A stretch of DNA of 64,000 bases. Source: Desulfobacterales bacterium (GTDB lineage: Bacteria > Desulfobacterota > Desulfobacteria > Desulfobacterales > Desulfosalsimonadaceae). Positions within the stretch are counted from its first letter, which is position 1; every line of letters starts with the position of its first letter. The stretch is taken from contig CAXXNU010000019.1 of NCBI GenBank assembly GCA_963675805.2, forward strand, positions 388,929 through 452,928. Reading direction: 5' to 3'. The notes under the pieces are model-generated. The model made no database searches, was not told the DNA's origin, and saw only the letters and a program-made list of their open reading frames with translations. Below, piece by piece: positions 7,019 to 60,306 of the stretch. The position numbers and the translations under genes were made by a program.

Positions 7019-7966
7019 ATGAAGGCTTTTAGTTACATTGTGTTAGCATTATTATTCATCGGGATTTGTATGACCGGGTGTTCAAATGACAGCGATGTGA
7101 AATCTTTGAATGCGGAAGCCCTGAAATTGGCGATGGCCGGCAAGGTTGATCAGGCCATGGAAAAGGCTAAGGCGGCGCTTGAAAAAGCGGAAAAAGAGAA
7201 TGGGGCCTTTCACTTATTGACGGCCATGAGTCTCGAAACTCTGGGGACGGTATATCAGGCCAAGGGGGATGCTGACAAAGCCGAATCCAGCTACCATCAG
7301 GCTTTGTCCATTGTCCAAAAGACCATCGGGCCAGACAGCGGGGAAGCGGCAAAGATTATGAATAATCTGGCAGCGCTGTATTACTCGAAACAAGAAAACG
7401 ATAAGGCAGCATCCTTTTACAAACAGACTCTTGCTATTGTGGAAAAAAAATTTGATGCCGATGATCCCAGGTTGGCGGTGCTGCGCAAAAATATTTCCAT
7501 ATGTGAAGGGAAAGGGAGCGGCGGGGAGGATGCCTGGGCGGCTCAAAAGCCGTTCGCTGACAAAGAAAATTTTCCCGAAGGATCCCAGACAGTTGCCCCA
7601 ATGTTAGGCCCGCCGGGGAGTGAGACTAAGGATCTCGTTCCTCAGCAGATCAAAGATTCCATGTTCTCGCAACTGGCCCAGCAGAATATTTATCTATCCG
7701 ATTTAGAACCCTTGGCTCAGGTAGATATTGACAATAAAGGCATTGTGTTTCCTTATCATGCTCTGAAAAAAGGGAAAGACTCTGATTCCGCCCAAGAGAT
7801 TGTTGTACTATTCGCTTCTGTCTATAAGCCGGAAAAACCGGATACCGTGGTTTTTCAGCAGTGCCGGCTCATATCCTACACCAGTTATCTGGCGTCCTTG
7901 GAAAAAGGCGGGGCAGAGCAATTGAAACAGGAGATTCAGGAGGTTTTTAATAATTTATATTTATAG
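7019..7966 (+). CDS. TPR-repeat lipoprotein
   Basis: Signal peptide plus lipobox (LLFIGICMTGC). TPR-like repeats include LETLGTVYQAKGDADKAESSYHQAL and MNNLAALYYSKQENDKAASFYKQTL. Confidence 0.65.
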   Translation: MKAFSYIVLALLFIGICMTGCSNDSDVKSLNAEALKLAMAGKVDQAMEKAKAALEKAEKENGAFHLLTAMSLETLGTVYQAKGDADKAESSYHQALSIVQKTIGPDSGEAAKIMNNLAALYYSKQENDKAASFYKQTLAIVEKKFDADDPRLAVLRKNISICEGKGSGGEDAWAAQKPFADKENFPEGSQTVAPMLGPPGSETKDLVPQQIKDSMFSQLAQQNIYLSDLEPLAQVDIDNKGIVFPYHALKKGKDSDSAQEIVVLFASVYKPEKPDTVVFQQCRLISYTSYLASLEKGGAEQLKQEIQEVFNNLYL

Positions 7967-38697: not shown

Positions 38698-39648
38698 ATG
38701 AAGCATGCGTCATTAAAACAATTGCTGGATACCTTTGTGGATTTTCTTTCCACGGAAAAAGGGTATTCAGACAACACCTGCCGCGCGTACGCCAATGATC
38801 TGGAAGATTTCATCGCCTATTTTCTGTCCAACCGGGCTCTGGCGGTCACCTATGAAGATGACGGCGACAAGGAATATGATGCCGGTGATGTGGCGTCGAT
38901 TAGCGGACTGATGATCCGCGGCTATTTAGGTGTTTTGCACAAGCAGAAAATTAAAAAAACCTCCGTGGCCCGGAAGCTTTCCGCCATCCGGTCGTTTTTA
39001 AAATTTCTGGAGCGGCACGGGGTGATTGCGGACAATCCCGCGGTTTTGGTCATCACCCCGAAACAGGACAAGCCGATTCCCAGGTATTTGACCGTGGATG
39101 ATATGTTTCGGCTGCTGGATGCCATCAAGACCGAGAGCCTGATCGGGAAAAGGAACCGGGCGCTGCTTGAGACCATGTATTCCACCGGCATCCGCGTGTC
39201 GGAACTGGTGGGTCTCAATGTTGCGGATGTTGATTTTGCGGGCAAAACCATCCGGGTGACCGGTAAAGGAAATGTGGAGCGGATTGTGCCCATCGGCGCA
39301 AAATCTTTGGCCCTGATCCAGGATTACCGGAAAAGTCTCCATGTGCAGAAGGCGGTGGCGGCGGATCATAAAGGGGCATTGTTTTTGAATAAAAACAGGG
39401 GACGGCTTTCGGCGCGGTCGGTGGCCCGGATTCTTGAGAAATCCGCCCGGGCCGCAGGCCTTGATGTGCCGGTGGCACCCCATGATCTGCGGCATTCCTA
39501 TGCGACGCATATGCTGGATGCCGGGCTGGATTTGCGGGCGGTGCAGGAGCTTCTTGGGCATAAACAACTGTCCACCACCCAGAAATATACCCATGTGAGC
39601 ATTGACCGGCTGATGGCGGCTTACGACGCCGCGCATCCCCGCAAATGA
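38698..39648 (+). CDS. xerC: Tyrosine recombinase XerC
   Basis: LSTEKGYSDNTCRAYANDLEDF and the catalytic region HDLRHSYATHMLDAGLDLRAVQELLGHKQLSTTQKYTHV. It lies directly upstream of hslVU, the conserved xerC/codV-hslV-hslU arrangement. Confidence 0.85.
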   Translation: MKHASLKQLLDTFVDFLSTEKGYSDNTCRAYANDLEDFIAYFLSNRALAVTYEDDGDKEYDAGDVASISGLMIRGYLGVLHKQKIKKTSVARKLSAIRSFLKFLERHGVIADNPAVLVITPKQDKPIPRYLTVDDMFRLLDAIKTESLIGKRNRALLETMYSTGIRVSELVGLNVADVDFAGKTIRVTGKGNVERIVPIGAKSLALIQDYRKSLHVQKAVAADHKGALFLNKNRGRLSARSVARILEKSARAAGLDVPVAPHDLRHSYATHMLDAGLDLRAVQELLGHKQLSTTQKYTHVSIDRLMAAYDAAHPRK

Positions 39649-39650
39649 CA

Positions 39651-39758
39651 GCTTTGTAAAAAGCTCAAATTCTGTGTTGCGCTGCATCCTTCGCTGCTTC
39701 ATTGTACGAAAAGTACGAATCATTGCGAAGGATTTGTGCACCTTGAATTTGATGCTTT
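39651..39758. repeat. Dispersed intergenic repeat, copy A (hairpin-forming)
   Basis: The first 51 nt match copy B (54085-) at 45/51 positions by my manual alignment. Internal stems are AAAAGCTCAAATTC / GAATTTGA(T)GCTTTT and ATCCTTCGC / GCGAAGGAT. Confidence 0.65.
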
Positions 39759-39805
39759 TATACTTTGCTGTCAAAATATCTGTGTAAGATGAAGAAAGTA
39801 AAAAC

Positions 39806-40348
39806 ATGATGAAATTCCATGGCACCACCATTCTGGCGGTGAATTATAAGGGTAAAATGGCGGTTGCCGGTGACGGCCAGGTGACATTGAACCATTCCGT
39901 GGTCAAGCATCATGCCCGCAAAGTCCGCCGGATTTATAATGACCGGATTGTGGTGGGGTTTGCCGGGGCCACGGCCGACGCGCTGACCTTGTCTGAAAAA
40001 CTTGAAGGCAAACTGGAACGGTATAATGGCAACCTGATCCGTGCCGCAGTTGAACTGGCCCGGGACTGGCGGACAGACAAGTATCTGCGCCGCCTGGAAG
40101 CCATGATGATTGCGGTGGATGCCGCCCAGATGCTGCTGATTTCCGGCAACGGGGATGTGATCGAACCGGACGGGGGCGTGCTTGCCATCGGGTCCGGCGG
40201 CGTGGCGGCCCAGGCAGCGGCCACCGGGATTTTGAATCATGCGGATTCATTGAATCTGACCGCCCGGGACATTGTGGAACAATCTATGCGAATCGCCGCC
40301 AGTATCTGCGTGTTTACCAATGATGTGGTGACGGTTGAGGAATTTTGA
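39806..40348 (+). CDS. hslV: ATP-dependent protease subunit HslV
   Basis: [12 protein letters not shown] (N-terminal Thr nucleophile after processing), [15 protein letters not shown]. Confidence 0.9.
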
Positions 40349-41730
40349 TGAGCGACCTGAAACCAGCTGAAATCGTTAAAGAACTGGATAAATATATTAT
40401 CGGCCAGGACCGGGCCAAACGGTCCGTGGCCATTGCGTTGCGCAACCGGTGGCGTCGGCAGAATGTGGATGAAGAATTGCGCGAAGAGATCGCACCAAAA
40501 AATATTATTTTGATTGGCCCGACTGGCGTGGGAAAAACAGAAATCGCCCGTCGTTTGGCAAGACTCACTGAATCGCCGTTTATCAAAGTGGAAGCGTCCA
40601 AGTTCACGGAAGTGGGGTATGTGGGCCGGGATGTGGAATCCATGGTCCGCGATCTTTTGGAACTGGCCATCAATATGATCAAGTCCCGGGAGCAGGCGGC
40701 AGTGAAGATAAAGGCCCGGGAAATTGCTGAAGAGCGGATTCTGGATATTTTGCTTCCAGCGCCGGGTGAAAAACCCGCCGCCAATGTTCACGAGTTTAAG
40801 GAGTCATTGCAGACCGATCTGAAAGCTGTGGGGGAACCCAAAACAGTTTCCAGCACCCGGGAAAAACTGCGTAAAATGCTGCATGAGGGCCGACTGGACA
40901 AGCGGTTTGTGGATCTGGAGGTGGCGGACCGCTCCATGCCCATTGTGGAAATTTTTTCCAATACCGGTATGGAGGAAATGGGCATTAATTTTAAGGATAT
41001 GCTGAGCGGCATGATGCCCAAGGGGTCTTCCAAAAAAAGAAAAATGACCGTGTCCGAAGCCCTCGAAATATTGTCTCAGGAAGAAGCCCAGCGCCTGGTG
41101 GATATGGACAAGGTGGTGAAGGAAGCCATTCACAAAGCCGAACAGTCCGGCATTATTTTTCTGGACGAGATCGACAAAATCGCAGGCAAAGAAAAAACCG
41201 GGGGTCCTGATGTTTCCCGGGAAGGGGTGCAGCGGGATCTGCTTCCCATTGTTGAAGGCAGCACGGTGACCACCAAATACGGGCCGGTAAAAACCAACCA
41301 CATTTTGTTCATTGCCTCCGGCGCGTTTCATATGAGTAAACCATCTGATCTGATCCCGGAACTTCAGGGTCGGTTTCCAATCCGGGTGGAGCTGAATTCG
41401 TTGGGATGGAGGGAATTTTTGCGTATCCTCACTGAACCCAAAAACGCGCTCCTGCTTCAGTATATTGCACTTCTCCGGACCGAAGGGGTGAATGTGTCTT
41501 TTGACGACGCGGCAGTGGAAAATATTGCCCAGGTCGCGGAAGATGTGAACAATCATACGGAAAATATCGGGGCCCGCCGGCTGCACACGCTCATGGAGCA
41601 CCTGCTGGAAGATATTCTGTTTGATGCGCCGGATATCAGTGAGAAGGATATCGTCATCACCAAATCCTATGTGGATGAAAAGTTCAAGGATATCCGGGAT
41701 GATGAGGATTTGAGCAGGTATATTTTGTAG
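40345..41730 (+). CDS. hslU: ATP-dependent protease ATPase subunit HslU
   Basis: [25 protein letters not shown], Walker [17 protein letters not shown], Walker [15 protein letters not shown] overlap with hslV. Confidence 0.95.
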
Positions 41731-41778
41731 GTATAAGGTATAAGGTATAAGGTAGAAGGTGGAAGGTGGAAGGTAGAA
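41730..41778 (+). repeat. Heptamer array (GGTNNAA / AGGTNNA), 7 abutting units
   Basis: GGTATAA x3, GGTAGAA, GGTGGAA x2, GGTAGAA. The array starts on the G of the hslU TAG stop. Confidence 0.9.
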
Positions 41779-41788
41779 GGCTGGTCAG

Positions 41789-42145
41789 GTGCGGGATCAT
41801 ACAAAATTAAGGGCTTTTGCGCTGGTTGATGAAATAGCAATTTTAATTTATAGATTAACCGCCGAATTTCCAAAAGAAGAACGTTATGGCCTGACATCGC
41901 AAATGCGGCGGGCGGCAGTTTCTGCTCCTTCAAATATTGTGGAAGGATGTGCCCGGGACAGTCAGTCTGATTATCTCCGCTACCTGTATATTTCGTTCGG
42001 TGCATTGAAAGAATTAAATTACCAATTAAATTTATCAAAACGATTGGGTTTTTCTAATGACGATTATTTCGAATTGATTGAATCCAAAATTCTTGAGGCG
42101 GAAAAAGTACTGAATGGTTTAATTCGGTCAATCAGAAAAACCTGA
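41789..42145 (+). CDS. Four-helix-bundle protein (23S rRNA intervening-sequence protein / Avd-like family)
   Basis: 118 aa, GTG start. FPKEERYGLTSQMRRAAVSAPSNIVEGCAR...YLYISFGALKELNYQL is the family hallmark. Confidence 0.8.
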   Translation: MRDHTKLRAFALVDEIAILIYRLTAEFPKEERYGLTSQMRRAAVSAPSNIVEGCARDSQSDYLRYLYISFGALKELNYQLNLSKRLGFSNDDYFELIESKILEAEKVLNGLIRSIRKT

Positions 42146-42156
42146 CCCGTTTTAAC

Positions 42157-42184
42157 TTATACCTTAAACCTTATACCTAACCCC
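42157..42184 (-). repeat. Heptamer array, inverted orientation (TTNNACC), 4 units
   Basis: TTATACC TTAAACC TTATACC TAACCCC. This is the reverse complement type of the 41730 array. It ends 18 nt before the argB ATG. Confidence 0.85.
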
Positions 42185-42202
42185 CTACAAAAGAGGAACC
42201 CC

Positions 42203-43081
42203 ATGACCCCCAATGTTGCGGATATATTAATCGAAGCCCTGCCGTATATCCGGTATTTTTCCGGCATGACCATTGTGGTGAAATACGGCGGCCATGCCAT
42301 GGTGGACGAACAGCTCAAGATTGATTTTGCCCGGGATATCACGCTCATGAAATATATCGGCATGCATCCGGTGGTGGTCCATGGCGGCGGTCCTCAGATC
42401 AACAAGGTGCTGGATCAGATGGGCATCTCCACCAAATTTGTGAAAGGGATGCGGTTTACGGACGAGCAGACCATGGATGTGGTGGAAATGGTGCTGGGCG
42501 GAAAAGTGAACAAATCCATTGTGGCCCAGATCAACCGTCAGGGCGGAAAAGCTGTGGGCCTGAGCGGAAAAGACGGCGACCTGATTCTGGCGGAGAAACT
42601 TCAGCTCATGCATCAGCCGGATGTGAACAAGCCGCCGGAAATTATTGATCCCGGCCATGTGGGTGATGTCACCAAAATCAATCCATCCATTGTCACCACC
42701 CTGAGTGACCAGGGGTTTATTCCGGTCATTGCGCCGGTGGGGGTGGGAGAGAACGGTGAAACCTATAATATTAATGCGGATCTGGTGGCGTCCAGGGTTG
42801 CCTGCGCCCTTTCCTCGGGCCGGCTCATCTATCTCACGGATGTGGACGGGGTAAAGGATGCCGCCGGAGAGCTCATCAACTCCATTGATGCCCGAACCAT
42901 CAAGCAGATGATTGACGACAAAACCATTTCCGGCGGCATGATACCGAAGATTCAATACGCGCTGGCAGCGCTCAAAAGCGGTGTGAAAAAAGTGCAGATC
43001 ATTAACGGCACCAAACGCCACGCCTTGCTGCTGGAGCTTTTTACAGACAAGGGTATCGGCACGGAAGTAACGGAAACCTGA
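42203..43081 (+). CDS. argB: Acetylglutamate kinase
   Basis: [23 protein letters not shown]...VVHGGGPQI...YNINADLVA. Confidence 0.9.
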
Positions 43082-43119
43082 CTGGCCGCCCGAAAAAGAA
43101 ATAAGAAAAGGAAAAGACA

Positions 43120-44031
43120 TTGAAAAAAGACATTCTGACTCTCGAAGAACTGGATGCGTCAGATTTTAACCGACTGATCGATCGGGCCGCAGAGCTGAAA
43201 GTTCGTTACAAAAGCGGGAAGGCTGACCGGACCCTGGTGGGGAAGTCCGTGGGACTGATTTTTGACAAACCTTCCACCCGCACGCGGCTGTCGTTTGAAA
43301 CCGCCGCCATCCAGCTCGGCGCAACCCCCATTTTTATCGCGTCCGGAGATACCCAGATGGCCCGAAATGAGCCTATTGAAGATACAGCCCGGGTCATGAG
43401 CCGGTATCTGGACGGCATCGCGTTCCGGACGTTTTCCCAGGCCCTGCTCGAAGAATTTGCCGCCAGCTGCGATATCCCGGTGATCAACGCCCTGACCGAT
43501 ACCTTTCATCCCTGCCAGATTTTGAGTGACCTGCTGACCGTAAAGGAAATCAAAGGGGACCTGCACAAATTGAAAATCGCATGGATCGGTGACGGCAACA
43601 ATATGGCCCATTCTTGGATCAATGCGGCAGCAGTGCTGGGGTTTAAGCTGAATCTTGCCTGCCCCAAAGGCTATCAGCCGGACAGACAGATCATTGAAAA
43701 GGCCTGCAGTAAAAACAGTGCCATAATTGTTACCACCGATCCGGTGGATGCCGCCCGGGGCGTGGATGTTATCAATACAGACGTCTGGGCCAGCATGGGG
43801 CAGGAAGATGAGCAGCAGGAGCGGATGAAGGTGTTTGAGGCCTATCAGGTCAATTCGCTGATTGTTGATATCGCCCGCAAAGATGCCATTGTCATGCATT
43901 GCCTGCCGGCCCACCGGGGGGAAGAAATCACTGCCGATGTATTGGAAGGTCCCCAGTCTGTGGTCTGGGACCAGGCGGAAAACAAAATGCATATGCATAA
44001 GGCAGTGTTGGATATTTTATTAAACCAATAA
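43120..44031 (+). CDS. argF: Ornithine carbamoyltransferase
   Basis: TTG start. [34 protein letters not shown]. Confidence 0.9.
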
Positions 44032-44042
44032 GGAGACATATC

Positions 44043-45245
44043 GTGACAAAACAGGTAAACAAGGTGGTGCTGGCCTATTCCGGCGGCCTTGATACATCCG
44101 TGATTTTAAAGTGGCTGATTGAAACCTATGATTGTGAAGTCGTGGCCTTTTCAGCGGACATTGGTCAGGCCGAGGAGCTGGATCATATTGACGAAAAAGC
44201 CCGGAAAACCGGAGCAGTGAACGTGTATGTGGATGATCTGCGGGAAGAATTTGTAAAAGATTACGTGTTTCCTGCCTTCCGCGCCAATGCCATCTATGAA
44301 GGCCAGTATCTTTTGGGCACGTCTCTGGCAAGACCGCTGATTGCCAAACGCCAGATGGAAATCGCGGCCCTTGAAAACGCGGACGCAGTGAGTCATGGCG
44401 CAACAGGCAAAGGAAACGACCAGGTCCGGTTTGAATTGTCTTATTTTGCAATTAACCCGCATATCAAGATTGTTGCGCCCTGGCGGGAGTGGGATTTGAA
44501 TTCACGCACCGCTTTGATGGAATTTGCGGAAAAGCACGGCATTCCGGTGACCGCCACGAAGAAATCTCCCTACAGCACGGATCGGAACCTCCTGCATATC
44601 AGCTATGAAGGCGGCATTCTGGAAGACCCGTGGAGTGAGCCGCCGGAAGATATGTATACTTTGACCGTTTCCCCCAAAGACGCGCCGGATGAAGCGGATA
44701 TTATTGAAATTACTTTTAAAAACGGCGATCCCGTGGCGGTTAATGACCATTATTTGACCCCCGCGGCCCTGCTGGCGGAACTGAACACCCTTGGCGGGCG
44801 GCACGGCATCGGTAGAGATGATATTGTGGAAAACCGGTTTGTGGGAATGAAATCCCGGGGCGTGTATGAAACGCCGGGGGGCACTATTCTGCGTGCCGCC
44901 CACATGGCCCTGGAATCTTTGACCCTGGACCGGGAAGTCATGCATCTGCGGGATTCCCTGATTCCGAGATACGCGGAAATGGTGTATTACGGGTTCTGGT
45001 TTGCGCCGGAAAGGGAACTTTTGCAGAAAATGATCGACGACACCCAAAAGACAGTGAACGGCGTGGTGCGGCTGGAGCTTTTCAAGGGCCGGTGCCGGGC
45101 CATCGGCCGGAAATCCGATGATTCCCTGTATAATATGGATTTCGCCACTTTTGAAGATGACTCGGTCTACAAACAGTTTGACGCGGAAGGGTTTATCCGG
45201 CTGAATGCCCTGCGCCTCCGAATTCGGAAATTGATGAAAAAGTAG
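44043..45245 (+). CDS. argG: Argininosuccinate synthase
   Basis: GTG start after [37 protein letters not shown]. Confidence 0.95.
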
Positions 45246-45252
45246 AAGTGCA

Positions 45253-45280
45253 GGTATAAGGTATAAGGTTTAAGGTTTAA
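45253..45280 (+). repeat. Heptamer array (GGTNNAA), 4 units
   Basis: GGTATAA GGTATAA GGTTTAA GGTTTAA, 8 nt after the argG stop. Confidence 0.85.
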
Positions 45281-45432
45281 AATTTGAGATAAAAGTAAAA
45301 AAGTAAAGCTGAAAAGAGAAAAACGAAATTCCAGGTTGTTAGAATTTAAGGGAGGGCCTATCCCTCCCACTTCATAAAGACAGATAACTGCAGGATAGCG
45401 TTTTTTCTGACATGATACGGATACTCAGGGCT

Positions 45433-45485
45433 TTCAACCTTAAACCTTCTACCTTCTACCTAAGAACCTAAACAACCTAACAACC
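45433..45485 (-). repeat. Heptamer array, inverted orientation (TTNNACC), 4 units plus 3 longer degenerate units
   Basis: TTCAACC TTAAACC TTCTACC TTCTACC, then TAAGAACC TAAACAACC TAACAACC. It ends 10 nt before the argH ATG. Confidence 0.85.
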
Positions 45486-45495
45486 GAGACCCACA

Positions 45496-46905
45496 ATGAC
45501 TGAAAAACCATGGGACGGCCGGTTTGCGGAACCCACAGACGCGGCCGTGGAAGCCTTTACTTCCTCCATTGCGGTGGATAAGAAGTTATACCAATATGAT
45601 ATCGACGGCAGCATTGCCCATTGCAGAATGCTGGCCAAATGCGGCATTATCACCGTCGAAGAAGCAGATGCCCTGACTGGCGGTCTTGAAAAAATCCGCC
45701 AGGAGATCACCAGTGGAGATTTTGTTTTTTCGGACCGGCTGGAAGATATCCACATGCACATCGAGGACCGCTTGGCCGCCCATGTGGGCAATGTGTCCCG
45801 AAAATTGCACACCGGACGAAGCAGAAATGATCAGGTGGCCCTGGATATTCGGCTGTACCTGCGGGACATGAGCCGGAAAATCATATACGGCCTGGTTCAG
45901 CTCCGGAAAATTCTGGTGGATATGGCTGAAACCCACATGGATGTGGTCATGCCTGGATATACCCATCTGCAGCGGGCCCAGCCCGTGCTTTTTTCCCATC
46001 ATTTGCTGGCCTACTATGAAATGTTCGCCCGGGATACCCAGCGATTTTCAGACGGGTTTTCCAGGATGAATGTCATGCCACTGGGTGCGGCCGCCCTTGC
46101 CGGCACCACGTATCCTATTGACCGGGCCTATACCGCACAGCTTCTCGATTTTCCAAAGGTTTGCGAAAACAGTCTGGACGCGGTTTCGGACCGGGATTTT
46201 ATGGTTGAATTTCTCGCATCCGCCAGCTTGTGCATGGTGCATTTCAGCCGGTTTTCCGAAGAACTGGTCATGTGGTCGTCGTCTGAATTTAATTTTATCA
46301 CCCTGTCGGACGCCTTTTCCACGGGGAGCAGCATCATGCCCCAGAAAAAAAATCCAGACGTGCCGGAGCTGGTGCGGGGCAAAACCGGCAGGGTGGTGGG
46401 CAGTCTCATGGCCATGCTCACCCTGATGAAATCTCTGCCCCTGGCCTATAACCGGGACATGCAGGAAGACAAGCCCCCGGTGTTTGACGCAGCGGAAACC
46501 CTGAGCGCCTGCATTGATATTTACATCCGTATGCTGCCCGCCATTACCGTTAATGCCGAAATTATGCAAAATGCTTTGTCCACCGGCTATTTAAACGCCA
46601 CGGACATGGCCGATTATCTGGTGGGAAAAGGCATGCCGTTTCGGGAGGCCCACGGGTGTGTCGGCCGGGCCGTGAGCTACGGGCTGGATAACAAAAAAGA
46701 GCTGCACGAATTCACCCTGGATGAGCTGCGCCGGTTTTCCGATCTGATTGAAGAGGACATTTTTCCGGCCCTGACCATCGGCCGGATGATTGAACGGCGC
46801 ACCTCTTACGGCGGCACCGCCACGGACAATGTGCGGGCCGCTATGAAACGCGCAAAAGCGATAGTAGCGGCGGAGCTATCGGAAATCAGGGAAATGCATG
46901 GATAA
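45496..46905 (+). CDS. argH: Argininosuccinate lyase
   Basis: PWDGRFAE..., GYTHLQRAQP, SSIMPQKKNPD. Confidence 0.95.
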   Translation: MTEKPWDGRFAEPTDAAVEAFTSSIAVDKKLYQYDIDGSIAHCRMLAKCGIITVEEADALTGGLEKIRQEITSGDFVFSDRLEDIHMHIEDRLAAHVGNVSRKLHTGRSRNDQVALDIRLYLRDMSRKIIYGLVQLRKILVDMAETHMDVVMPGYTHLQRAQPVLFSHHLLAYYEMFARDTQRFSDGFSRMNVMPLGAAALAGTTYPIDRAYTAQLLDFPKVCENSLDAVSDRDFMVEFLASASLCMVHFSRFSEELVMWSSSEFNFITLSDAFSTGSSIMPQKKNPDVPELVRGKTGRVVGSLMAMLTLMKSLPLAYNRDMQEDKPPVFDAAETLSACIDIYIRMLPAITVNAEIMQNALSTGYLNATDMADYLVGKGMPFREAHGCVGRAVSYGLDNKKELHEFTLDELRRFSDLIEEDIFPALTIGRMIERRTSYGGTATDNVRAAMKRAKAIVAAELSEIREMHG

Positions 46906-47425: not shown

Positions 47426-47950
47426 ATGAAACAGAAAATATTTCACAATAATACCGCCTATATTGCTGTTGGTTCCAATATGGGCGACAAACTGGAAACC
47501 TGCCGGAACGCATTAGCAGATCTGGACCGCACGGATGTGGTGGCTGTGGAGGCGGTGTCCCGGTTTTATTTTACCGAGCCCATGGAATATTCAGACCAGC
47601 CCTGGTTTGTGAACGGGGCCGCCAGAATCCGCACCAGCGCGGACCCGGCGGAATTGCTCTCGGTGCTGAAATCCTTTGAAGCGGCATATGGCCGGACAGA
47701 CGGCGGGGTGCGGTTCGGTCCCCGGCCCCTTGATTTTGACATTATTTTTTATAATGAATTGATCATGGACACGCCGCAACTGATTGTTCCCCATCCGCGT
47801 ATGCACCTTCGGGAGTTTGTGCTGCGGCCCATTAACGATATTGCGCCGGAGTTGATGCATCCGGTGTTCTGTAAAAGCATTCGCCGGATGCTCGCAGAAT
47901 TGCGTGTTCAGAACCAGCAGTGCATACCGGTGGAGGCGGCAACCCTTTAA
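47426..47950 (+). CDS. folK: 2-amino-4-hydroxy-6-hydroxymethyldihydropteridine diphosphokinase
   Basis: AYIAVGSNMGD, RFGPRPLDFDIIFY, VPHPRMHLREFVLRPINDIAP. Confidence 0.85.
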   Translation: MKQKIFHNNTAYIAVGSNMGDKLETCRNALADLDRTDVVAVEAVSRFYFTEPMEYSDQPWFVNGAARIRTSADPAELLSVLKSFEAAYGRTDGGVRFGPRPLDFDIIFYNELIMDTPQLIVPHPRMHLREFVLRPINDIAPELMHPVFCKSIRRMLAELRVQNQQCIPVEAATL

Positions 47951-47978
47951 GGGCTTGCGGTTATCCTCCTGCTCGACA

Positions 47979-48008
47979 AATCGAAATCGGGATCGAAATC
48001 GAAATCGA
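47979..48008. repeat. Hexamer array RATCGR x5
   Basis: AATCGA AATCGG GATCGA AATCGA AATCGA, in the folK-tal spacer. Confidence 0.7.
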
Positions 48009-48088
48009 TTCCAAAGAAAATGCCGCCATTCGGGCGGAAAAAATGATCAGAAAAAAATTATCGACATATCTACTTCGCTCAAGTTAAA

Positions 48089-48165
48089 CCGGTCGGCACG
48101 GTGGCCGACCCTACACAGTCCGGAGGTTCCGACCGGCTCGTAGGGCAGGCCACCGTGCCTGCCGG
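48089..48165. repeat. REP-like long palindrome (26-nt arms)
   Basis: CCGGTCGGCACGGTGGCCGACCCTAC (48089-48114) pairs with GTAGGGCAGGCCACCGTGCCTGCCGG (48140-48165). Arms are complementary at 22/26 positions by my count. Confidence 0.7.
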
Positions 48166-48260
48166 TAAGGGAATGATGGCCAATACTTTGTAACAACTTG
48201 ACTGGAGTGGATAACCAAAAAAATATCTATCAAAAAAACAATTATTAAAGGAGAACCTGA

Positions 48261-49487: not shown

Positions 49488-49739
49488 TCTAATGCGGGGA
49501 ATCTTAACCCATGCGTCCGGTTGGCAATAACGGTTCCATGTTGCAGGTTCCTGGTTACAGGTGTCGGATGTCAGAATGGTTTGTTCCGGCATCCATAAAA
49601 CTCGATATTTAGGAAAATGGCCATCTGAACACGGACACCTTTTAATGGAAAACGATGTTTCATTTTTTTTGCACAGAAGCTCCAAAGTCAAAGTAGTAGG
49701 CTAAACAACCAAGACCCTAAGAAAATTGCGGGGGTGTTC

Positions 49740-52302: not shown

Positions 52303-52343
52303 TGCCGGCTGGCAGGGTTGTCATAATAACCGATTCCTATTTT

Positions 52344-52406
52344 TTTACCATCTACCTTTTATCTTTCAGCTTTGAGCTTAAAGCTTCGATCTTTCACCTT
52401 CCCACC
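52344..52406 (-). repeat. Degenerate heptamer array TNNANCT x9 (reverse complement AGNTNNA)
   Basis: TTTACCA TCTACCT TTTATCT TTCAGCT TTGAGCT TAAAGCT TCGATCT TTCACCT TCCCACC. The last units overlap the final 4 codons and stop of the glycerate kinase gene. Confidence 0.7.
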
Positions 52407-53740
52407 AGTACAACCCTGATATCCATGACATTCGTACCGGTGGGCCCGGTCATTAAAAGATCCCCGGTTTTTTTGAAAAAGTGATAGCTGTCATTATTCG
52501 CGAGAAATTTATCCGGGTTCAGTCCAATTTTTCGAGCCTTTGCAATGGTGGATGTATCCACCACCGCGCCGGCGGCATCTGTGGGCCCGTCTGTGCCGTC
52601 CGTCCCCCCGCTTAAAATGACCATGCGGTTTTCGCCATGCATATCAAGGGCGGCAATAAGGGCAAACTCCTGATTTCGGCCGCCTTTACCATTTCCTTTC
52701 AGAACAATAGTGGTTTCGCCGCCGGACAATATACAGGCAGGTGCCGGAACAGGGCGGCCGAAGCGCTGAATGTTTTTTGCGGCATCCGTATGCAGGTGGG
52801 CAGCGGCCCGGGTGTCCCCTTCCAGATTTTCGTCTAAAATAAAGGGATTGTAACCCAGTTCGCAGGCTTTCTGATAGGCCGCGGCAAGTGCTTCTTTATT
52901 AGATGCGGCGATAGCATTGAGTGTGTTTTTAAAGGCAGGATGATTAAGTGGCGGCGTATCGGGCGTGATACCGGCGGCGCCCTCTTTCAGGTGCTGCAAA
53001 ACGGAAACCGGAATTTGGTTCTGGATGCGGTAGTTGTCAATAATTGTCAGACAATCAGAAAATGTCGTGGGGTCTCCCGTGGTGGGGCCGGAAGCGATAA
53101 CATCCAGCCGGTTGCCGACCACATCCGAAATGATCAGGGTGACCAGGGTGGCAGGGGATGCTTTTACGGCCAGATGGCCGCCTTTTATAGCGGATATGTG
53201 TTTTCTCAAGGTGTTGATTTCATCAATGGAGGCCCCGCAATGGAGAAGCGTTTGTAACGTTTTCTGCTTGTCCTGAAGGGTGATGCCCGGTGCCGGAAGG
53301 GGCAGTAGGGCAGATCCCCCACCGGAAATCAGGCAGATGATCAGATCGTTTTCCGTTGCCGCTTCTGCAATGTCCAGCATCTGAGTGGCGGCCTTCTCTC
53401 CGTTTGCATCGGGAATGGGGTGGCCGGCTTCAATCAGCCGGATTTTTTCAAGGGGCGCGGTATGACCGTATTTTACCGAGATGATTCCCGAGGTAATGGT
53501 TTTGCCCAGGATTTTTTCCATGGCAGCGGCCATGTGTGCAGATGCTTTGCCGGCGCCGATGATAAAGACGCGGTTAAACTGGTTTAAATGAAAAGTTTTC
53601 TGGTCAATGGAAAGGATGTGATTTTCATACCGGCATAATTTTTTAATTGCCTCAAACGCATTAACAGCGCTGAGCGCGCTGTTAAAAAGGCTTGCGGCAT
53701 GGCGCCGCATGGTATTTAATAAGATCTGATTTTCAGGCAT
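52394..53740 (-). CDS. Glycerate 2-kinase, MOFRL family (TtuD/GckA-like)
   Basis: FIIGAGKASAHMAAAME, LISGGGSALL, ILSGGETTIVLKGNGKGGRNQEFALIAAL, GTDGTDGPTDAAGA. Confidence 0.8.
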   Translation of the reverse strand: MPENQILLNTMRRHAASLFNSALSAVNAFEAIKKLCRYENHILSIDQKTFHLNQFNRVFIIGAGKASAHMAAAMEKILGKTITSGIISVKYGHTAPLEKIRLIEAGHPIPDANGEKAATQMLDIAEAATENDLIICLISGGGSALLPLPAPGITLQDKQKTLQTLLHCGASIDEINTLRKHISAIKGGHLAVKASPATLVTLIISDVVGNRLDVIASGPTTGDPTTFSDCLTIIDNYRIQNQIPVSVLQHLKEGAAGITPDTPPLNHPAFKNTLNAIAASNKEALAAAYQKACELGYNPFILDENLEGDTRAAAHLHTDAAKNIQRFGRPVPAPACILSGGETTIVLKGNGKGGRNQEFALIAALDMHGENRMVILSGGTDGTDGPTDAAGAVVDTSTIAKARKIGLNPDKFLANNDSYHFFKKTGDLLMTGPTGTNVMDIRVVLVGR

Positions 53741-58347: not shown

Positions 58348-60306
58348 CTAATGTTTTTTTGCCTTGGGCGTTTCATTGGTTTGGTTCGGTGCATTGTCCG
58401 GATCATTATTCGGGTCAGAAGCGGTTTTCGCAGATTCTGCGGCTTGCGATTCTTTTTCCTTTGCAAGGGTTTCTGCTTCAGCTGCTTTTTTTGCTTCTTC
58501 AGCAGCGATCTGCTTTTCTAAAAGATCCCGCTTTTTGTTGACTTCAGCGGTCTTTTGGTCCAAAAGGTCCCGCTGGGAAGTGCCGGTGGCCAGGGTTGCC
58601 GCGCTGTGCAGGTGGGTGAGGGCAGACTCATACCCCTCAATGGTATTTTTGCCGGCGGCCACATCCGCCTTGTATAGGGAGAACAAAAAATCAATGTTGC
58701 TCAGCCGTGTTTTTGCAGCGTTTTTGTGCTGGCGGTCCGGGGCGAAATGAATGGCCTTGTAAAGGTTTGTTTTAATGGCTTCAAAATCCGGCTGGCCTTT
58801 TTTTTCAGAAAGGGCCTCAGCCTTTTGGATATAAAACTGATAGGCCGGGACCAATGCTTCTTTTTTGGCGTAAACGTCTTTTACAGGTTCTTCAACGGAC
58901 GCGCCAGGGACATGCATTACCAGTTTTTTGCCGGTGGGTGAAAATTTTCCCTGCCAGATGTCAATGCCGCCGTCTGCCTGTTTCAGATAGTAGTTGTTCG
59001 TGTTCATGGCACTGGCAATGATCAGCAGCGCGAATAGTCCGCCCACGAGAGCGACTAATATTTTGACGGCGTTGTTCATAGGGGGCTCTGTCGGGCCCTG
59101 ATCAGCGGGAATTGATGGCGGTGCCGGTGGTTTTGCCGCTTTTTCTTCAGCTTCTTTCTCTGCTTTGGCTTTTGCCTCGGCCTCGGCTTTTGCTTTTTCG
59201 GCCGCCTCTTTTTCAGCTTTTGCCTTGGCTTCCGCTTCTGCCTTAGCCTTTTCGGCTTTCGCCTTTGCTTCAGCCTCTGCCTTGGCCTTCTCCTGAGCCT
59301 CTTTTTCTGCTTTGGCTTTTGCCTCGGCCTCGGCTTTTGCTTTTTCCGCGGCTTCCTTTTCAGCCTTTGCCTTTTCGGCTGCTTCCTTCTCCGCTTTCGC
59401 CTTTGCTTCAGCTTCTGCTTTGGCTTTCTCCTGAGCCTCTTTTTCTGCTTTGGCTTTTGCCTCGGCCTCGGCCTTTGCTTTTTCTGCGGCCTCTTTTTCA
59501 GCTTTTGCCTTGGCTTCCGCTTCGGCCTTGGCCTTTTCGGCTGCTTCCTTCTCTGTTTTCGCCTTTGCCTCAGCTTCTGCTTTGGCTTTCTCTTGAGCTT
59601 CTTTTTCTGCTTTGGCTTTTGCCTCGGCTTCGGCCTTTGCTATTTCTGCGGCCTCTTTTTCTGCCCGGGCCTTGCCTGCTGCCTCAATGACCTTCATATC
59701 AAAGGTTCTGGCAATCAACCCCCGAATACGGTCGGCTTCTGCTTTGTCTTTGCTCTCAAAGGCCGGGGGAGCGGAAAAGCCTTTTTCAAACGAATCATCC
59801 ACCGCCGGCACATATAATTTTTTGGGCTGCCAGGAATCAAATTGAAGATTGATCAGTTCTCTTACGGAAAGTGTTTTTTTGGGTTTGGCGGCTGGTTTTT
59901 CTTTTGCCGGTGCTTTTGGCTTTGCTTTTGGGGCTGTTTTTTTTTTTGGCTTTTCTGCTTTTGCCTTGTCCGGCACAGTTAGGTCGAATTGCCGATTTAA
60001 AAGGTCCCGCAGGGCGGTTGCTTTTTCTTTGTCTTTCTCATCAATGGCCGGCGGCGCTGAAAAGCCACTTAAAAGGTCACTGTCCGGGGTTGCTTTGAAA
60101 AGTTTTTTAGGGGCCCAGGCATCAAATTTCCTGTTCAGGATGGATTTCAAGGTTGGTTTTTTGGGCGCCGGTTTTTTTTTGGCCGTTGGCTTTTTTGTTT
60201 CTTTTTTAGGGGCAGCGGCTTTGGTTTCCGTTTTCTTGGCGGTTGTCTTTTTTTTCGCGGTTGCTTTCTTTTTGGTAGTGGATTTGGTCAGGCTTTTTTT
60301 TCCCAT
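58348..60306 (-). CDS. Repetitive single-pass membrane protein: H1-like Lys-rich N-tail, duplicated about 50-aa module, KAEAEAKAKAEKEA repeat coiled coil, TM helix, C-terminal domain
   Basis: 652 aa. The N-terminus is MGKKSLTKSTTKKKATAKKK.... Two FD(A/S)W(A/Q)PKKL(F/Y)...GFSAPPA modules are present. About 9 units of an 18-aa K/A/E repeat follow. The TM helix is AVKILVALVGGLFALLIIASAM. Confidence 0.7.
   Translation of the reverse strand: MGKKSLTKSTTKKKATAKKKTTAKKTETKAAAPKKETKKPTAKKKPAPKKPTLKSILNRKFDAWAPKKLFKATPDSDLLSGFSAPPAIDEKDKEKATALRDLLNRQFDLTVPDKAKAEKPKKKTAPKAKPKAPAKEKPAAKPKKTLSVRELINLQFDSWQPKKLYVPAVDDSFEKGFSAPPAFESKDKAEADRIRGLIARTFDMKVIEAAGKARAEKEAAEIAKAEAEAKAKAEKEAQEKAKAEAEAKAKTEKEAAEKAKAEAEAKAKAEKEAAEKAKAEAEAKAKAEKEAQEKAKAEAEAKAKAEKEAAEKAKAEKEAAEKAKAEAEAKAKAEKEAQEKAKAEAEAKAKAEKAKAEAEAKAKAEKEAAEKAKAEAEAKAKAEKEAEEKAAKPPAPPSIPADQGPTEPPMNNAVKILVALVGGLFALLIIASAMNTNNYYLKQADGGIDIWQGKFSPTGKKLVMHVPGASVEEPVKDVYAKKEALVPAYQFYIQKAEALSEKKGQPDFEAIKTNLYKAIHFAPDRQHKNAAKTRLSNIDFLFSLYKADVAAGKNTIEGYESALTHLHSAATLATGTSQRDLLDQKTAEVNKKRDLLEKQIAAEEAKKAAEAETLAKEKESQAAESAKTASDPNNDPDNAPNQTNETPKAKKH
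59139..59670 (-). repeat. In-frame tandem repeat, 54-nt unit (about 9 copies, two truncated)
   Basis: The marker TGCTTTGGCTTTTGCCTCGG recurs at 59161, 59308, 59446 and 59608. The offsets (147, 138, 162 nt) equal multiples of 54 plus truncated 39- and 30-nt units. The repeat encodes KAKAEAEAKAKAEKEA(A/Q)E. Confidence 0.85.

Follow-up and report, generated by a model that had tools for sequence, protein, structure and literature searches.

The 64,000-nucleotide stretch of Desulfobacterales DNA analyzed here (the window, meaning the whole of that stretch) carries a 455-nt segment that fills the gap between hslU and argB and consists of an array of tandem heptamers, a gene for a four-helix-bundle (4HB) protein, and a second heptamer array complementary to the first. 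We read this segment as being, on balance, a promoterless cassette of the intervening sequence (IVS) type, either mobile or recombining, that was inserted in the sense direction into an mRNA operon and whose arrays would form a stem that RNase III may process. The RNase III step is taken over from the IVS in the 23S rRNA of Coxiella burnetii, the layout of which the segment matches. In the papers searched, such a layout is known from 23S rRNA, and what appears new here is the mRNA-operon setting and the presence of heptamer-array arms as a property of the whole family.

Sequence reading confirmed every coordinate that the initial annotation had given for the heptamers, the open reading frame (ORF), and their spacing, and the arrays lie far beyond chance expectation. 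Tandem Repeats Finder detected period-7 arrays of 7.4 copies at 41729-41780 and 3.3 copies at 42156-42178, and an inverted-repeat search returned a 40-nt repeat (I2) in which the 3' arm is 83% complementary to the 5' arm. The pattern (GGTNNAA)×3, with up to 2 mismatches, gave 15 matches in the window compared with 0.09 expected, and none of 100 shuffled sequences reached 15. The linker between the 5' array and the GTG start codon is 10 nt long (GGCTGGTCAG), the ORF stop and the distal array are separated by 11 nt, and the distal array lies 18 nt from the argB ATG (42203). The native HslU C terminus, YIL*, is the same in all relatives compared at hslU-argB junctions. GAAGG, ∼9 nt 5' of the GTG, is the likely Shine-Dalgarno sequence of the 4HB gene and would lie on the loop side of the stem; the homologous pre-start position in other cassettes reads AGGCTTTTAGGRAYAAAYC-ATG. 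The A at 42193 and the leader that follows it form AGAGGAAC, the likely argB Shine-Dalgarno sequence, just outside the predicted stem.

Matches to promoter or terminator consensus sequences that might belong to the cassette itself were at chance level across 39600-46000. At the gathering threshold, an Rfam search of the whole window returned two tRNAs only and no rRNA, and a relaxed search of 41600-45600 returned one chance-level match and no fitting RNA family. A xerC-like gene two genes upstream is the sole integrase-family gene nearby in the window and close relatives. An integron gene cassette, which would have one attC at its 3' end only and be stacked beside intI, was ruled out by the repeats on both sides of the ORF and by the occurrence of a single cassette amid housekeeping genes.

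The ORF had been assigned to the four-helix-bundle/23S rRNA IVS protein family, and profile searches bore this out. Its 118-aa product matches PF05635 at 104.2 bits (cut-off 33.8, E = 5.5e-30, profile positions 4-106 of 106) and TIGR02436 at 108.6 bits (cut-off 24, E = 1.8e-31), and its GTG start is aligned with the ATG of homologues (MRDHTKLRAF). A phmmer search of the PDB found Xanthomonas XCC0516 (2GSC, E = 1e-24, residues 2-102) as the closest solved structure, along with 2RLD (E = 4.6e-4). Judged by these profile matches, the ORF is a bona fide PF05635/TIGR02436 four-helix-bundle protein. The ratio of nonsynonymous to synonymous substitution rates (dN/dS) of the gene is 0.06-0.09 against those homologues for which it was measurable, synonymous sites being saturated between phyla. 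From these codon comparisons, we conclude that the protein is under strong purifying selection and that the gene is functional, not a relic. Exact-sequence look-ups of the window 4HB and ArgB proteins gave no match, and relatives were reached via homologues; 7414 relatives of the 4HB protein were found at E ≤ 1e-10.

The view that the cassette is not a diversity-generating retroelement (DGR) also held. Models of the DGR accessory protein Avd scored below their curated cut-offs (NF033474, 25.3 bits versus 80; PF22296, 20.1 bits versus 40), no reverse transcriptase was present among the genes called 6-10 kb to each side in seven close relatives (L001, L002, and L167-L171), and neither template- or variable-repeat-like sequences nor long direct repeats were found in 30000-54000. 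Based on these results, a DGR, a DGR remnant, and an Avd protein were all ruled out.

Heptamer arrays accompany 4HB genes well outside this lineage. We examined 80 genome loci that encode 4HB proteins with 63-78% identity and that come from at least eight phyla, spanning Thermodesulfobacteriota, Nitrospirota, Nitrospinota, Verrucomicrobiota, Spirochaetia, Acidobacteriota, Bacteroidales, KSB1, SAR324, and Brocadiaceae. Nearly all of these loci have purine-rich heptamers upstream of the gene (AGGCTGA, AGACTGA, AGGTAGA, or AGGCTGT) and their complements downstream. Complementarity between the flanks was at or above threshold in 59 of 75 loci compared with 8 of 390 control pairs, and stems spanning the ORF were found in 56 of 74. 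The density of arrays of period 7, 14, or 21 is 3.03 per kb within the ±200-nt flanks and 0.17 per kb elsewhere in these homologous loci, an 18-fold difference that agrees with a co-occurrence of arrays and 4HB genes, which the initial annotation had put up for testing. The AGGTNNA consensus proposed for the heptamers is correct in the window but is only the local dialect of a far more variable unit, which in other lineages reads AGGCTGA, CAGGTGT, GACAGAC, or GCTAAAA.

More distant homologues have arrays as well, in 14 of 14 cases on viral contigs (51-58% identity), where the arms can also pair across the ORF, and in all four cyanobacterial plasmid copies examined (∼40% identity). The arms are clearly inverted in the plasmid copy of Calothrix brevissima NIES-22, which has AGGGTGT ×4 and CTACACC ×4. 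On a Pseudanabaena galeata plasmid (L163; NZ_CP112875.1, 44768-48115), the 4HB gene lies between cas6 and cas4, with ∼15 units of GCTAAAA upstream and ∼10 of GCCAAAA downstream that are direct, not inverted; this arrangement may explain earlier reports of the PF05635 family beside CRISPR loci.

Across the homologues, 4HB genes are co-directional with the upstream gene in a ratio of 62:3 and with the downstream gene in a ratio of 54:16, and their median distance is 71 nt from the upstream stop codon and 46 nt from the next start codon. Such orientation and spacing are characteristic of a cargo gene that has no promoter and rides host transcripts. From the above comparisons, we conclude that the window cassette belongs to a very large family of modules of this kind.

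The initial annotation had suggested that the two arrays pair into a long stem that encloses the ORF, and the predicted structures agree with this proposal. When 41720-42205 was folded as RNA, the minimum free energy (MFE) was -137 kcal/mol (z = -3.66), and in the MFE and centroid structures alike the arrays were paired with each other. Although copy numbers differ among the window, L001, and L002, hairpins folded from the arms alone contain 30-35 inter-arm pairs in all three; the window cassette has 30. In these models, the two arrays can pair into an interrupted stem of ∼30 bp. The purine-rich arm comes first in 53 of the 56 4HB stems and in 26 of the 32 stems at ORF-less junctions.

The history of the insertion was analyzed in 80 ArgB loci from metagenomes, in which ArgB is 74-95% identical to that of the window. 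All 74 loci that include upstream DNA keep hslU next to argB. Those HslU relatives that bear a name belong to Desulfobacteraceae, Desulfosalsimonadaceae, and Desulfobacterales metagenome-assembled genomes, at 76-86% identity. The indel polymorphism and empty sites that had been envisaged at this junction do occur: over 69 distinct junctions the hslU-argB gap varies from -4 to 532 nt, and ten are 40 nt or less (for example, an overlapping TAATG). The empty site in L127 reads TAG-AGGAACTTGTT-ATG, starting AGGAAC, and the corresponding window sequence reads TAG-cassette-AGGAACCCC-ATG, so that the cassette directly follows the hslU stop codon and directly precedes the argB Shine-Dalgarno sequence.

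At this junction, intact or partial 4HB genes are confined to the closest clade (L083, L086, the window, and the window strains), and the cassette is kept throughout the clade with an ArgB identity of at least 87%. L084 and L105 retain codons 1-32 of the 4HB gene as N-terminal remnants, and these two were the only hits of a hidden Markov model search for 4HB remnants in other ORF-less hslU-argB inserts, so for most of the ORF-less hairpins an origin in 4HB cassettes is not demonstrable. The L085 junction is a 116-nt ORF-less hairpin; L087 has a solo (AGGTAGA)×3 array that runs into the argB Shine-Dalgarno sequence, and solo arrays also stand directly before argB in L090 and L152. Tandem Repeats Finder detects arrays of period 7, 14, or 21 in 31 of the 69 junctions, and many of these are inverted pairs built from other heptamers (CAGGTGT/CTGACAC, CAAGGAT, GACAGAC/CTGTCAT, and GATGTTG/CATCAAA).

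Variation at this site extends to the strain level. Among seven contigs from one ENA assembly, in which HslU is 99-100% identical where measured, the 5' array contains 4-7 heptamers (7 in the window), the 4HB gene occurs as two alleles that are ∼75% identical, and the 3' arm and the argB leader differ as well. The gene is also mosaic: between the window and L002, the proportion of synonymous differences (pS) is 0.125 over codons 1-65 and 1.0 over codons 66-118, compared with 0.07 for argB. This strain-level variation and the mosaic gene make the hslU-argB junction a hot spot of slippage and cassette exchange. In L168, the 5' arm has grown to ∼200 nt (7383-7583); additional arrays (GAAGCTG AAAGCTT AAAGCTC ...) are nested in it, and it contains an internal hairpin. 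These alignments show empty sites, hairpins without an ORF, remnants of pseudogenes, exchanged alleles, and slippage of heptamers, from which we conclude that the cassette is dispensable at this junction and turns over.

One subfamily of elements has a conserved terminal inverted repeat, GTAACTACTCAGGT(G)GATAG, which flanks 4HB elements of ∼440-453 bp and ORF-less miniature elements of 86-233 bp. It is present in L005, L007, L014, L037, L044, and L080 and in the minis of L011, L025, L052, and L074, and it was not found in the viral contigs. Exact 8-bp duplications lie just outside the repeats in L005 (TATTTTAA) and L044 (GTTACTTG), and L014 has 7 of 8 positions; the chance probability of such a duplication is estimated at ∼4e-4 per element. 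The target duplication of Neisseria Correia elements is TA. The 20-nt repeat is identical (20/20) in L005 (Desulfobacterales) and L080 (Brocadiaceae) despite a saturated pS of 0.85, showing that the terminal repeat itself is under selection, and the conserved repeats together with the 8-bp duplications indicate that this subfamily transposes or once did. The window cassette has neither this repeat nor a recognizable target duplication; its own terminal inverted repeats are the inverted arrays plus TTTTGTAGG/CCTACAAAA.

These observations bear on the main rival to an RNA-level reading, a purely DNA-level transposon. Under this proposal, the cassette is a non-autonomous transposon resembling transposable elements of the miniature inverted-repeat type (MITEs), or a recombination cassette, its repeats bind a transposase or recombinase encoded elsewhere, and the RNA hairpin is a by-product. 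The target duplications in L005, L044, and L014, the preservation of the terminal repeat across saturated synonymous divergence, the identical ends of the ORF-less minis, and the presence/absence and allele replacement at a single junction are all as expected for such an element, although the window copy shares neither its terminal repeat nor its duplication. It would be odd for a sequence-specific transposase site that the heptamers vary widely by lineage while the architecture stays constant, and the sense bias (62:3 for the gene; purine-rich arm first in 26 of 32 ORF-less stems) weighs against a DNA-level element, though expression of a promoterless cargo could explain it. No transposase partner was identified, and no search aimed at an autonomous element was made. 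In addition, the RNase III precedent of the Coxiella IVS shows that the RNA form is at least recognized (PMC4990558). Taking both sides together, we regard a solely DNA-level element as a serious possibility that nonetheless falls well short of an even chance.

In the IVS-type mechanism that we favor, the cassette would be transcribed by read-through from hslVU, and the arrays would zip into an interrupted stem of ∼30 bp in the transcript. This stem would loop out the ORF and juxtapose the hslU stop codon and the argB ribosome-binding site. By analogy to the Coxiella IVS and to Correia elements, RNase III may then cut the stem and split the transcript into hslVU, 4HB, and argBFGH pieces, which would be why the operon tolerates the insertion. 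Arms made of repeated 7-nt units would also tolerate shifts of register, such that slippage in copy number would spare the pairing.

Several points weigh against this mechanism. The two arms are unequal (7 versus 4 units), leaving some of the 5' arm unpaired or paired within the ORF. Mismatches in the stems show no excess of G:U over A:C, with 61 versus 69 in 4HB stems and 46 versus 56 in stems at ORF-less junctions. Selection for exact RNA pairing is thus not apparent, and symmetry at the DNA level, as in the transposon proposal, accounts for the arms just as well. The absent G:U excess fails to support selection on RNA but leaves room for it, in that the arrays may pair in shifting registers. 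The orientation bias could reflect no more than the requirement that the cargo gene be expressed, the proposed cut by RNase III is drawn by analogy from other systems, and the window cassette, as noted above, has neither the conserved terminal repeat nor the target duplication of its relatives. Its persistence throughout a clade means that it may be domesticated rather than selfish. Finally, the IVS-type account gives no reason for a unit length of 7 nt, and the dN/dS of 0.06-0.09 implies a selected protein function that this account leaves unexplained.

That constraint on the protein is one of the observations that would be accounted for if the 4HB protein itself binds the heptamer arrays, acting in autoregulation or propagation at its own gene and in trans control of translation at ORF-less arrays that adjoin the start or stop codons of other genes. 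In solved structures the 4HB protein is a ring-shaped pentamer. The linkage of gene and array holds from 40% to 97% protein identity and across phyla, plasmids, and viral contigs, but co-inheritance in one mobile unit accounts for this linkage without binding. ORF-less and solo arrays of the same dialect are present at other junctions of the same genome, solo arrays stand directly before argB in L087, L090, and L152, and work on Nostoc and Beggiatoaceae postulates a heptamer-binding factor near start codons. Such binding is putative, however, and specific recognition is not obvious when proteins that are 65-78% identical go with different heptamers (AGGCTGA, AGGCTGT, or AGGTATA) and when copy number ranges from 2 to 15 with no preference for five. 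We consider this explanation unlikely. A broader hypothesis, which we advance tentatively and ourselves rather doubt, is that 4HB genes and heptamer arrays are two halves of one system across phyla, plasmids, and phages. The ring protein would act on arrays as RNA or single-stranded DNA, both at its own gene and at ORF-less sites beside start and stop codons elsewhere; it would be the trans-factor of the short tandemly repeated repetitive (STRR) and TAACTGA repeats, and the 23S IVS would be one landing site.

The suggestion that the cassette serves as a translational decoy, in which the 5' arm is a string of Shine-Dalgarno sequences and the 3' arm an anti-Shine-Dalgarno mimic that together titrate or park ribosomes, is not supported by comparison with other lineages. 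The motifs AAGG and AAGGTGG do recur within the 5' arm, and the solo array of L087 ends in the argB Shine-Dalgarno sequence. Shine-Dalgarno mimicry is not general, however: arms elsewhere are built of AGGCTGA or of CAGGTGT, GACAGAC, GATGTTG, and GCTAAAA, the last four with little or no such resemblance. The 3' arm shares ACCT alone with the anti-Shine-Dalgarno sequence, and a paired stem would hide both arms. We therefore give the decoy explanation hardly any credence. The heptamers were also considered as a device that places stop codons in three frames; all frames are closed in 25 of 74 5' arms compared with 12 of 74 shuffles, which is weak support, and several heptamer types in the 4HB 5' arms compared contain no stop codon. 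This candidate was rejected.

The initial annotation was exact for the hslU-argB cassette but missed a second bracket of arrays between argG and argH (45252-45485) and a solo array (52343-52400), so that the 64-kb window in itself contains two brackets, one solo array, and one 4HB gene (Table 1). The second bracket ends 10 nt before the argH ATG (45496), and its arms form a 30-nt inverted repeat (I6) that is 90% complementary. Its fold (z = -3.15, with 35 inter-arm pairs) shows the arrays pairing as they do in the hslU-argB cassette. The 152-nt core is 97-98% identical in L001 and L002, arm copy numbers vary among strains, and the core has no Rfam match. A dispersed repeat or a 4HB remnant was rejected as the identity of this core, which among the loci compared matches only the orthologous L001 and L002 sites. 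Over 44 nt, the 5' arm of the hslU-argB cassette (41738-41781) shows 77% complementarity with the 3' arm of the second bracket (45430-45473; I1), and from this complementarity an alternative long-range pairing that encloses argB-argF-argG is conceivable. The solo array starts at the TGA stop codon of a minus-strand 448-aa gene (52394-53740; DUF4147/MOFRL in L002), and its units are GGTGAAA GATCGAA GCTTTAA GCTCAAA GCTGAAA GATAAAA GGTAGAT GGTAAAA.

Table 1. Features of the hslU-argB cassette, the argG-argH bracket, and the solo array, in window coordinates
Feature	Position	Strand	Basis
hslU last codons and TAG (TTTTGTAGG), predicted outer stem base	41722-41730	+	pairs with CCTACAAAA in MFE and centroid folds
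hslU stop codon TAG	41728-41730	+	read from sequence
5' arm, seven abutting heptamers (GGTATAA ×3, GGTAGAA, GGTGGAA ×2, GGTAGAA)	41730-41778	+	sequence, Tandem Repeats Finder, pattern search
Array end and linker (GAAGGCTGGTCAG), includes GAAGG	41775-41788	+	read from sequence
Four-helix-bundle (23S rRNA IVS protein) gene, 118 aa, GTG start	41789-42145	+	profile matches, ORF translation
3' arm, reverse-complement heptamers (TTATACC, TTAAACC, TTATACC, TAACCCC; fourth degenerate)	42157-42184	+	sequence, Tandem Repeats Finder, pattern search, inverted-repeat search
CCTACAAAA, complement of hslU end, closes predicted stem	42185-42193	+	fold
argB leader GAGGAACCC, then ATG at 42203	42194-42205	+	read from sequence
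Second bracket 5' arm (AGGTATA ×2, AGGTTTA ×2), between argG and argH	45252-45280	+	Tandem Repeats Finder, pattern search
Second bracket core, 152 nt, no ORF ≥60 aa, hairpin GGGAGGGcctatCCCTCCC at 45350-45368	45281-45432	+	sequence
Second bracket 3' arm (TTCAACC, TTAAACC, TTCTACC ×2, then 8-nt variants)	45433-45485	+	Tandem Repeats Finder, pattern search
Degenerate solo purine-rich heptamer array, no complementary partner	52343-52400	-	pattern search, sequence

Other small elements were seen in the region. At the hslV-hslU junction, where the two genes overlap in the window, L169 and L171 have a two-gene insert (L169-L171 5450-6000) that encodes a 71-aa ORF and a 62-aa HicA-toxin-family protein, and in L170 the 71-aa ORF alone was called. 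This insert is preceded, straight after the hslV stop codon, by AAGGCGG AAGGCGA AAGACTG, and no complementary 3' arm was seen. Between argF and argG, L001 (12240-12386) and L002 (12254-12400) have a 147-nt insert at a site where the window gap is 11 nt (44017-44027); its flanks are AAACCA direct repeats, it lacks heptamers, and it resembles a small mobile element of another kind. The window has ∼240 nt more than L001 and L002 at 47938-48245; within this extra DNA are an (AAATCG)×5 hexamer array (47978-48008) and a hairpin whose arms are 27 nt long (48088-48166; I8). A segment of ∼175 nt at 49490-49665 is present in the window and L001 and absent from L002; it contains a repeat with a 14-nt period at 49532-49562 (GGTTCCAGGTTACA) and, by eye, an imperfect inverted repeat formed by GGTGTCGGATGTCAGA and TCTGAACACGGACACC. 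A long imperfect tandem repeat at 59138-59756, with periods of 54, 108, 138, and 162 nt and GC-rich GCTTTTGCC/GCCTC motifs, is probably inside the coding region for a low-complexity protein.

Two old puzzles, the function of the 23S-IVS proteins (PMC4990558) and the role and partner of heptamer repeats (PMC4679880; bioRxiv 10.1101/2022.06.06.494920), are possibly one. The data presented above join both as a single module, a promoterless 4HB gene between complementary heptamer arrays, inside ordinary operons. If this is true, the IVS of rRNA is one particular instance of a general cassette that transcripts can harbor without being destroyed. For genome annotation, such a module explains both the "four helix bundle protein" genes that interrupt operons such as hslVU-argBFGH and cas6-cas4 and the hypervariable junctions between otherwise identical strains.

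Among known systems, the DGR accessory protein Avd has a homologous four-helix-bundle fold, and the window protein matches NF033474 and PF22296 weakly; it differs in scoring far below the Avd cut-offs and in having no reverse transcriptase, template repeat, or variable repeat nearby. Chunjie, a Geobacter uraniireducens MITE compared by description only, is likewise a small inverted-repeat element in an operon with many partial or truncated copies, but it lacks a cargo gene, and heptamer arrays are not reported for it (PMC10969869). The Correia elements of Neisseria form an inverted-repeat RNA stem in mRNAs that is cut by RNase III, altering the expression of neighboring genes (PMC10969869). 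Like the window cassette, they are short, have inverted repeats at their ends, and lie in intergenic regions that are transcribed, but they contain no gene and no heptamer arrays and are confined to one genus.

Heptamer repeats have been described in their own right. TAACTGA repeats lie near start codons in Beggiatoaceae, Cyanobacteria, and Bacteroidetes, where their role and binding partner are unknown (MacGregor 2015, PMC4679880); STRR and other heptamer repeats are found in Nostoc, and the work on Nostoc and on Beggiatoaceae postulates a heptamer-binding factor (bioRxiv 10.1101/2022.06.06.494920; PMC4679880); and heptanucleotide families occur in Geobacter metallireducens (PMC2700814). The window arrays fit the description of heptamer direct repeats of the STRR/TAACTGA type, which is a descriptive class and not a curated family. 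They share with them intergenic tandem 7-nt units that come within a few nucleotides of start codons, variable copy number, and a patchy phylogenetic spread that suggests horizontal transfer. The reported repeats differ in being mostly solo direct arrays, no connection with 4HB genes or paired inverted arms being drawn in those reports, and the text of MacGregor (PMC4679880) contains no occurrence of "S23," "intervening," or "four helix." The only prior link that we found between heptamer arrays and 4HB genes is in the paper on the Coxiella IVS, in a search that did not cover subscription journals, so that an earlier description is possible.

The 23S IVS of C. burnetii has an S23p ORF, a terminal stem of ∼28 bp, and 2-3 tandem GACAGAT units depending on the strain, and the site cut by RNase III was mapped to where the first heptamer repeat begins (PMC4990558). 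An IVS with an S23p ORF is also reported for Leptospira, and IVS-encoded proteins have no known function (PMC4990558). The window element differs from that of Coxiella in being placed in an mRNA operon (hslU/argB) and not in helix 45 of the 23S rRNA (an rRNA IVS lies in helix 25 or 45), in its ORF, which is intact and subject to purifying selection (that of Coxiella is in decay and, it appears, not translated), and in its heptamers (GGTATAA/GGTAGAA versus GACAGAT); RNase III cleavage is shown in Coxiella and would apply to the window by analogy only. The two elements are alike in encoding the same protein family (PF05635), in enclosing the ORF between terminal inverted repeats that form, or are predicted to form, a stem, in having tandem heptamers of strain-variable copy number directly 5' of the ORF, and in a length of ∼430-450 nt; the authors of that study consider the Coxiella IVS selfish (PMC4990558). 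The likeness to an rRNA IVS that the initial annotation had drawn from topology is thus closer than was supposed, as the Coxiella IVS also has heptamers before its S23p ORF.

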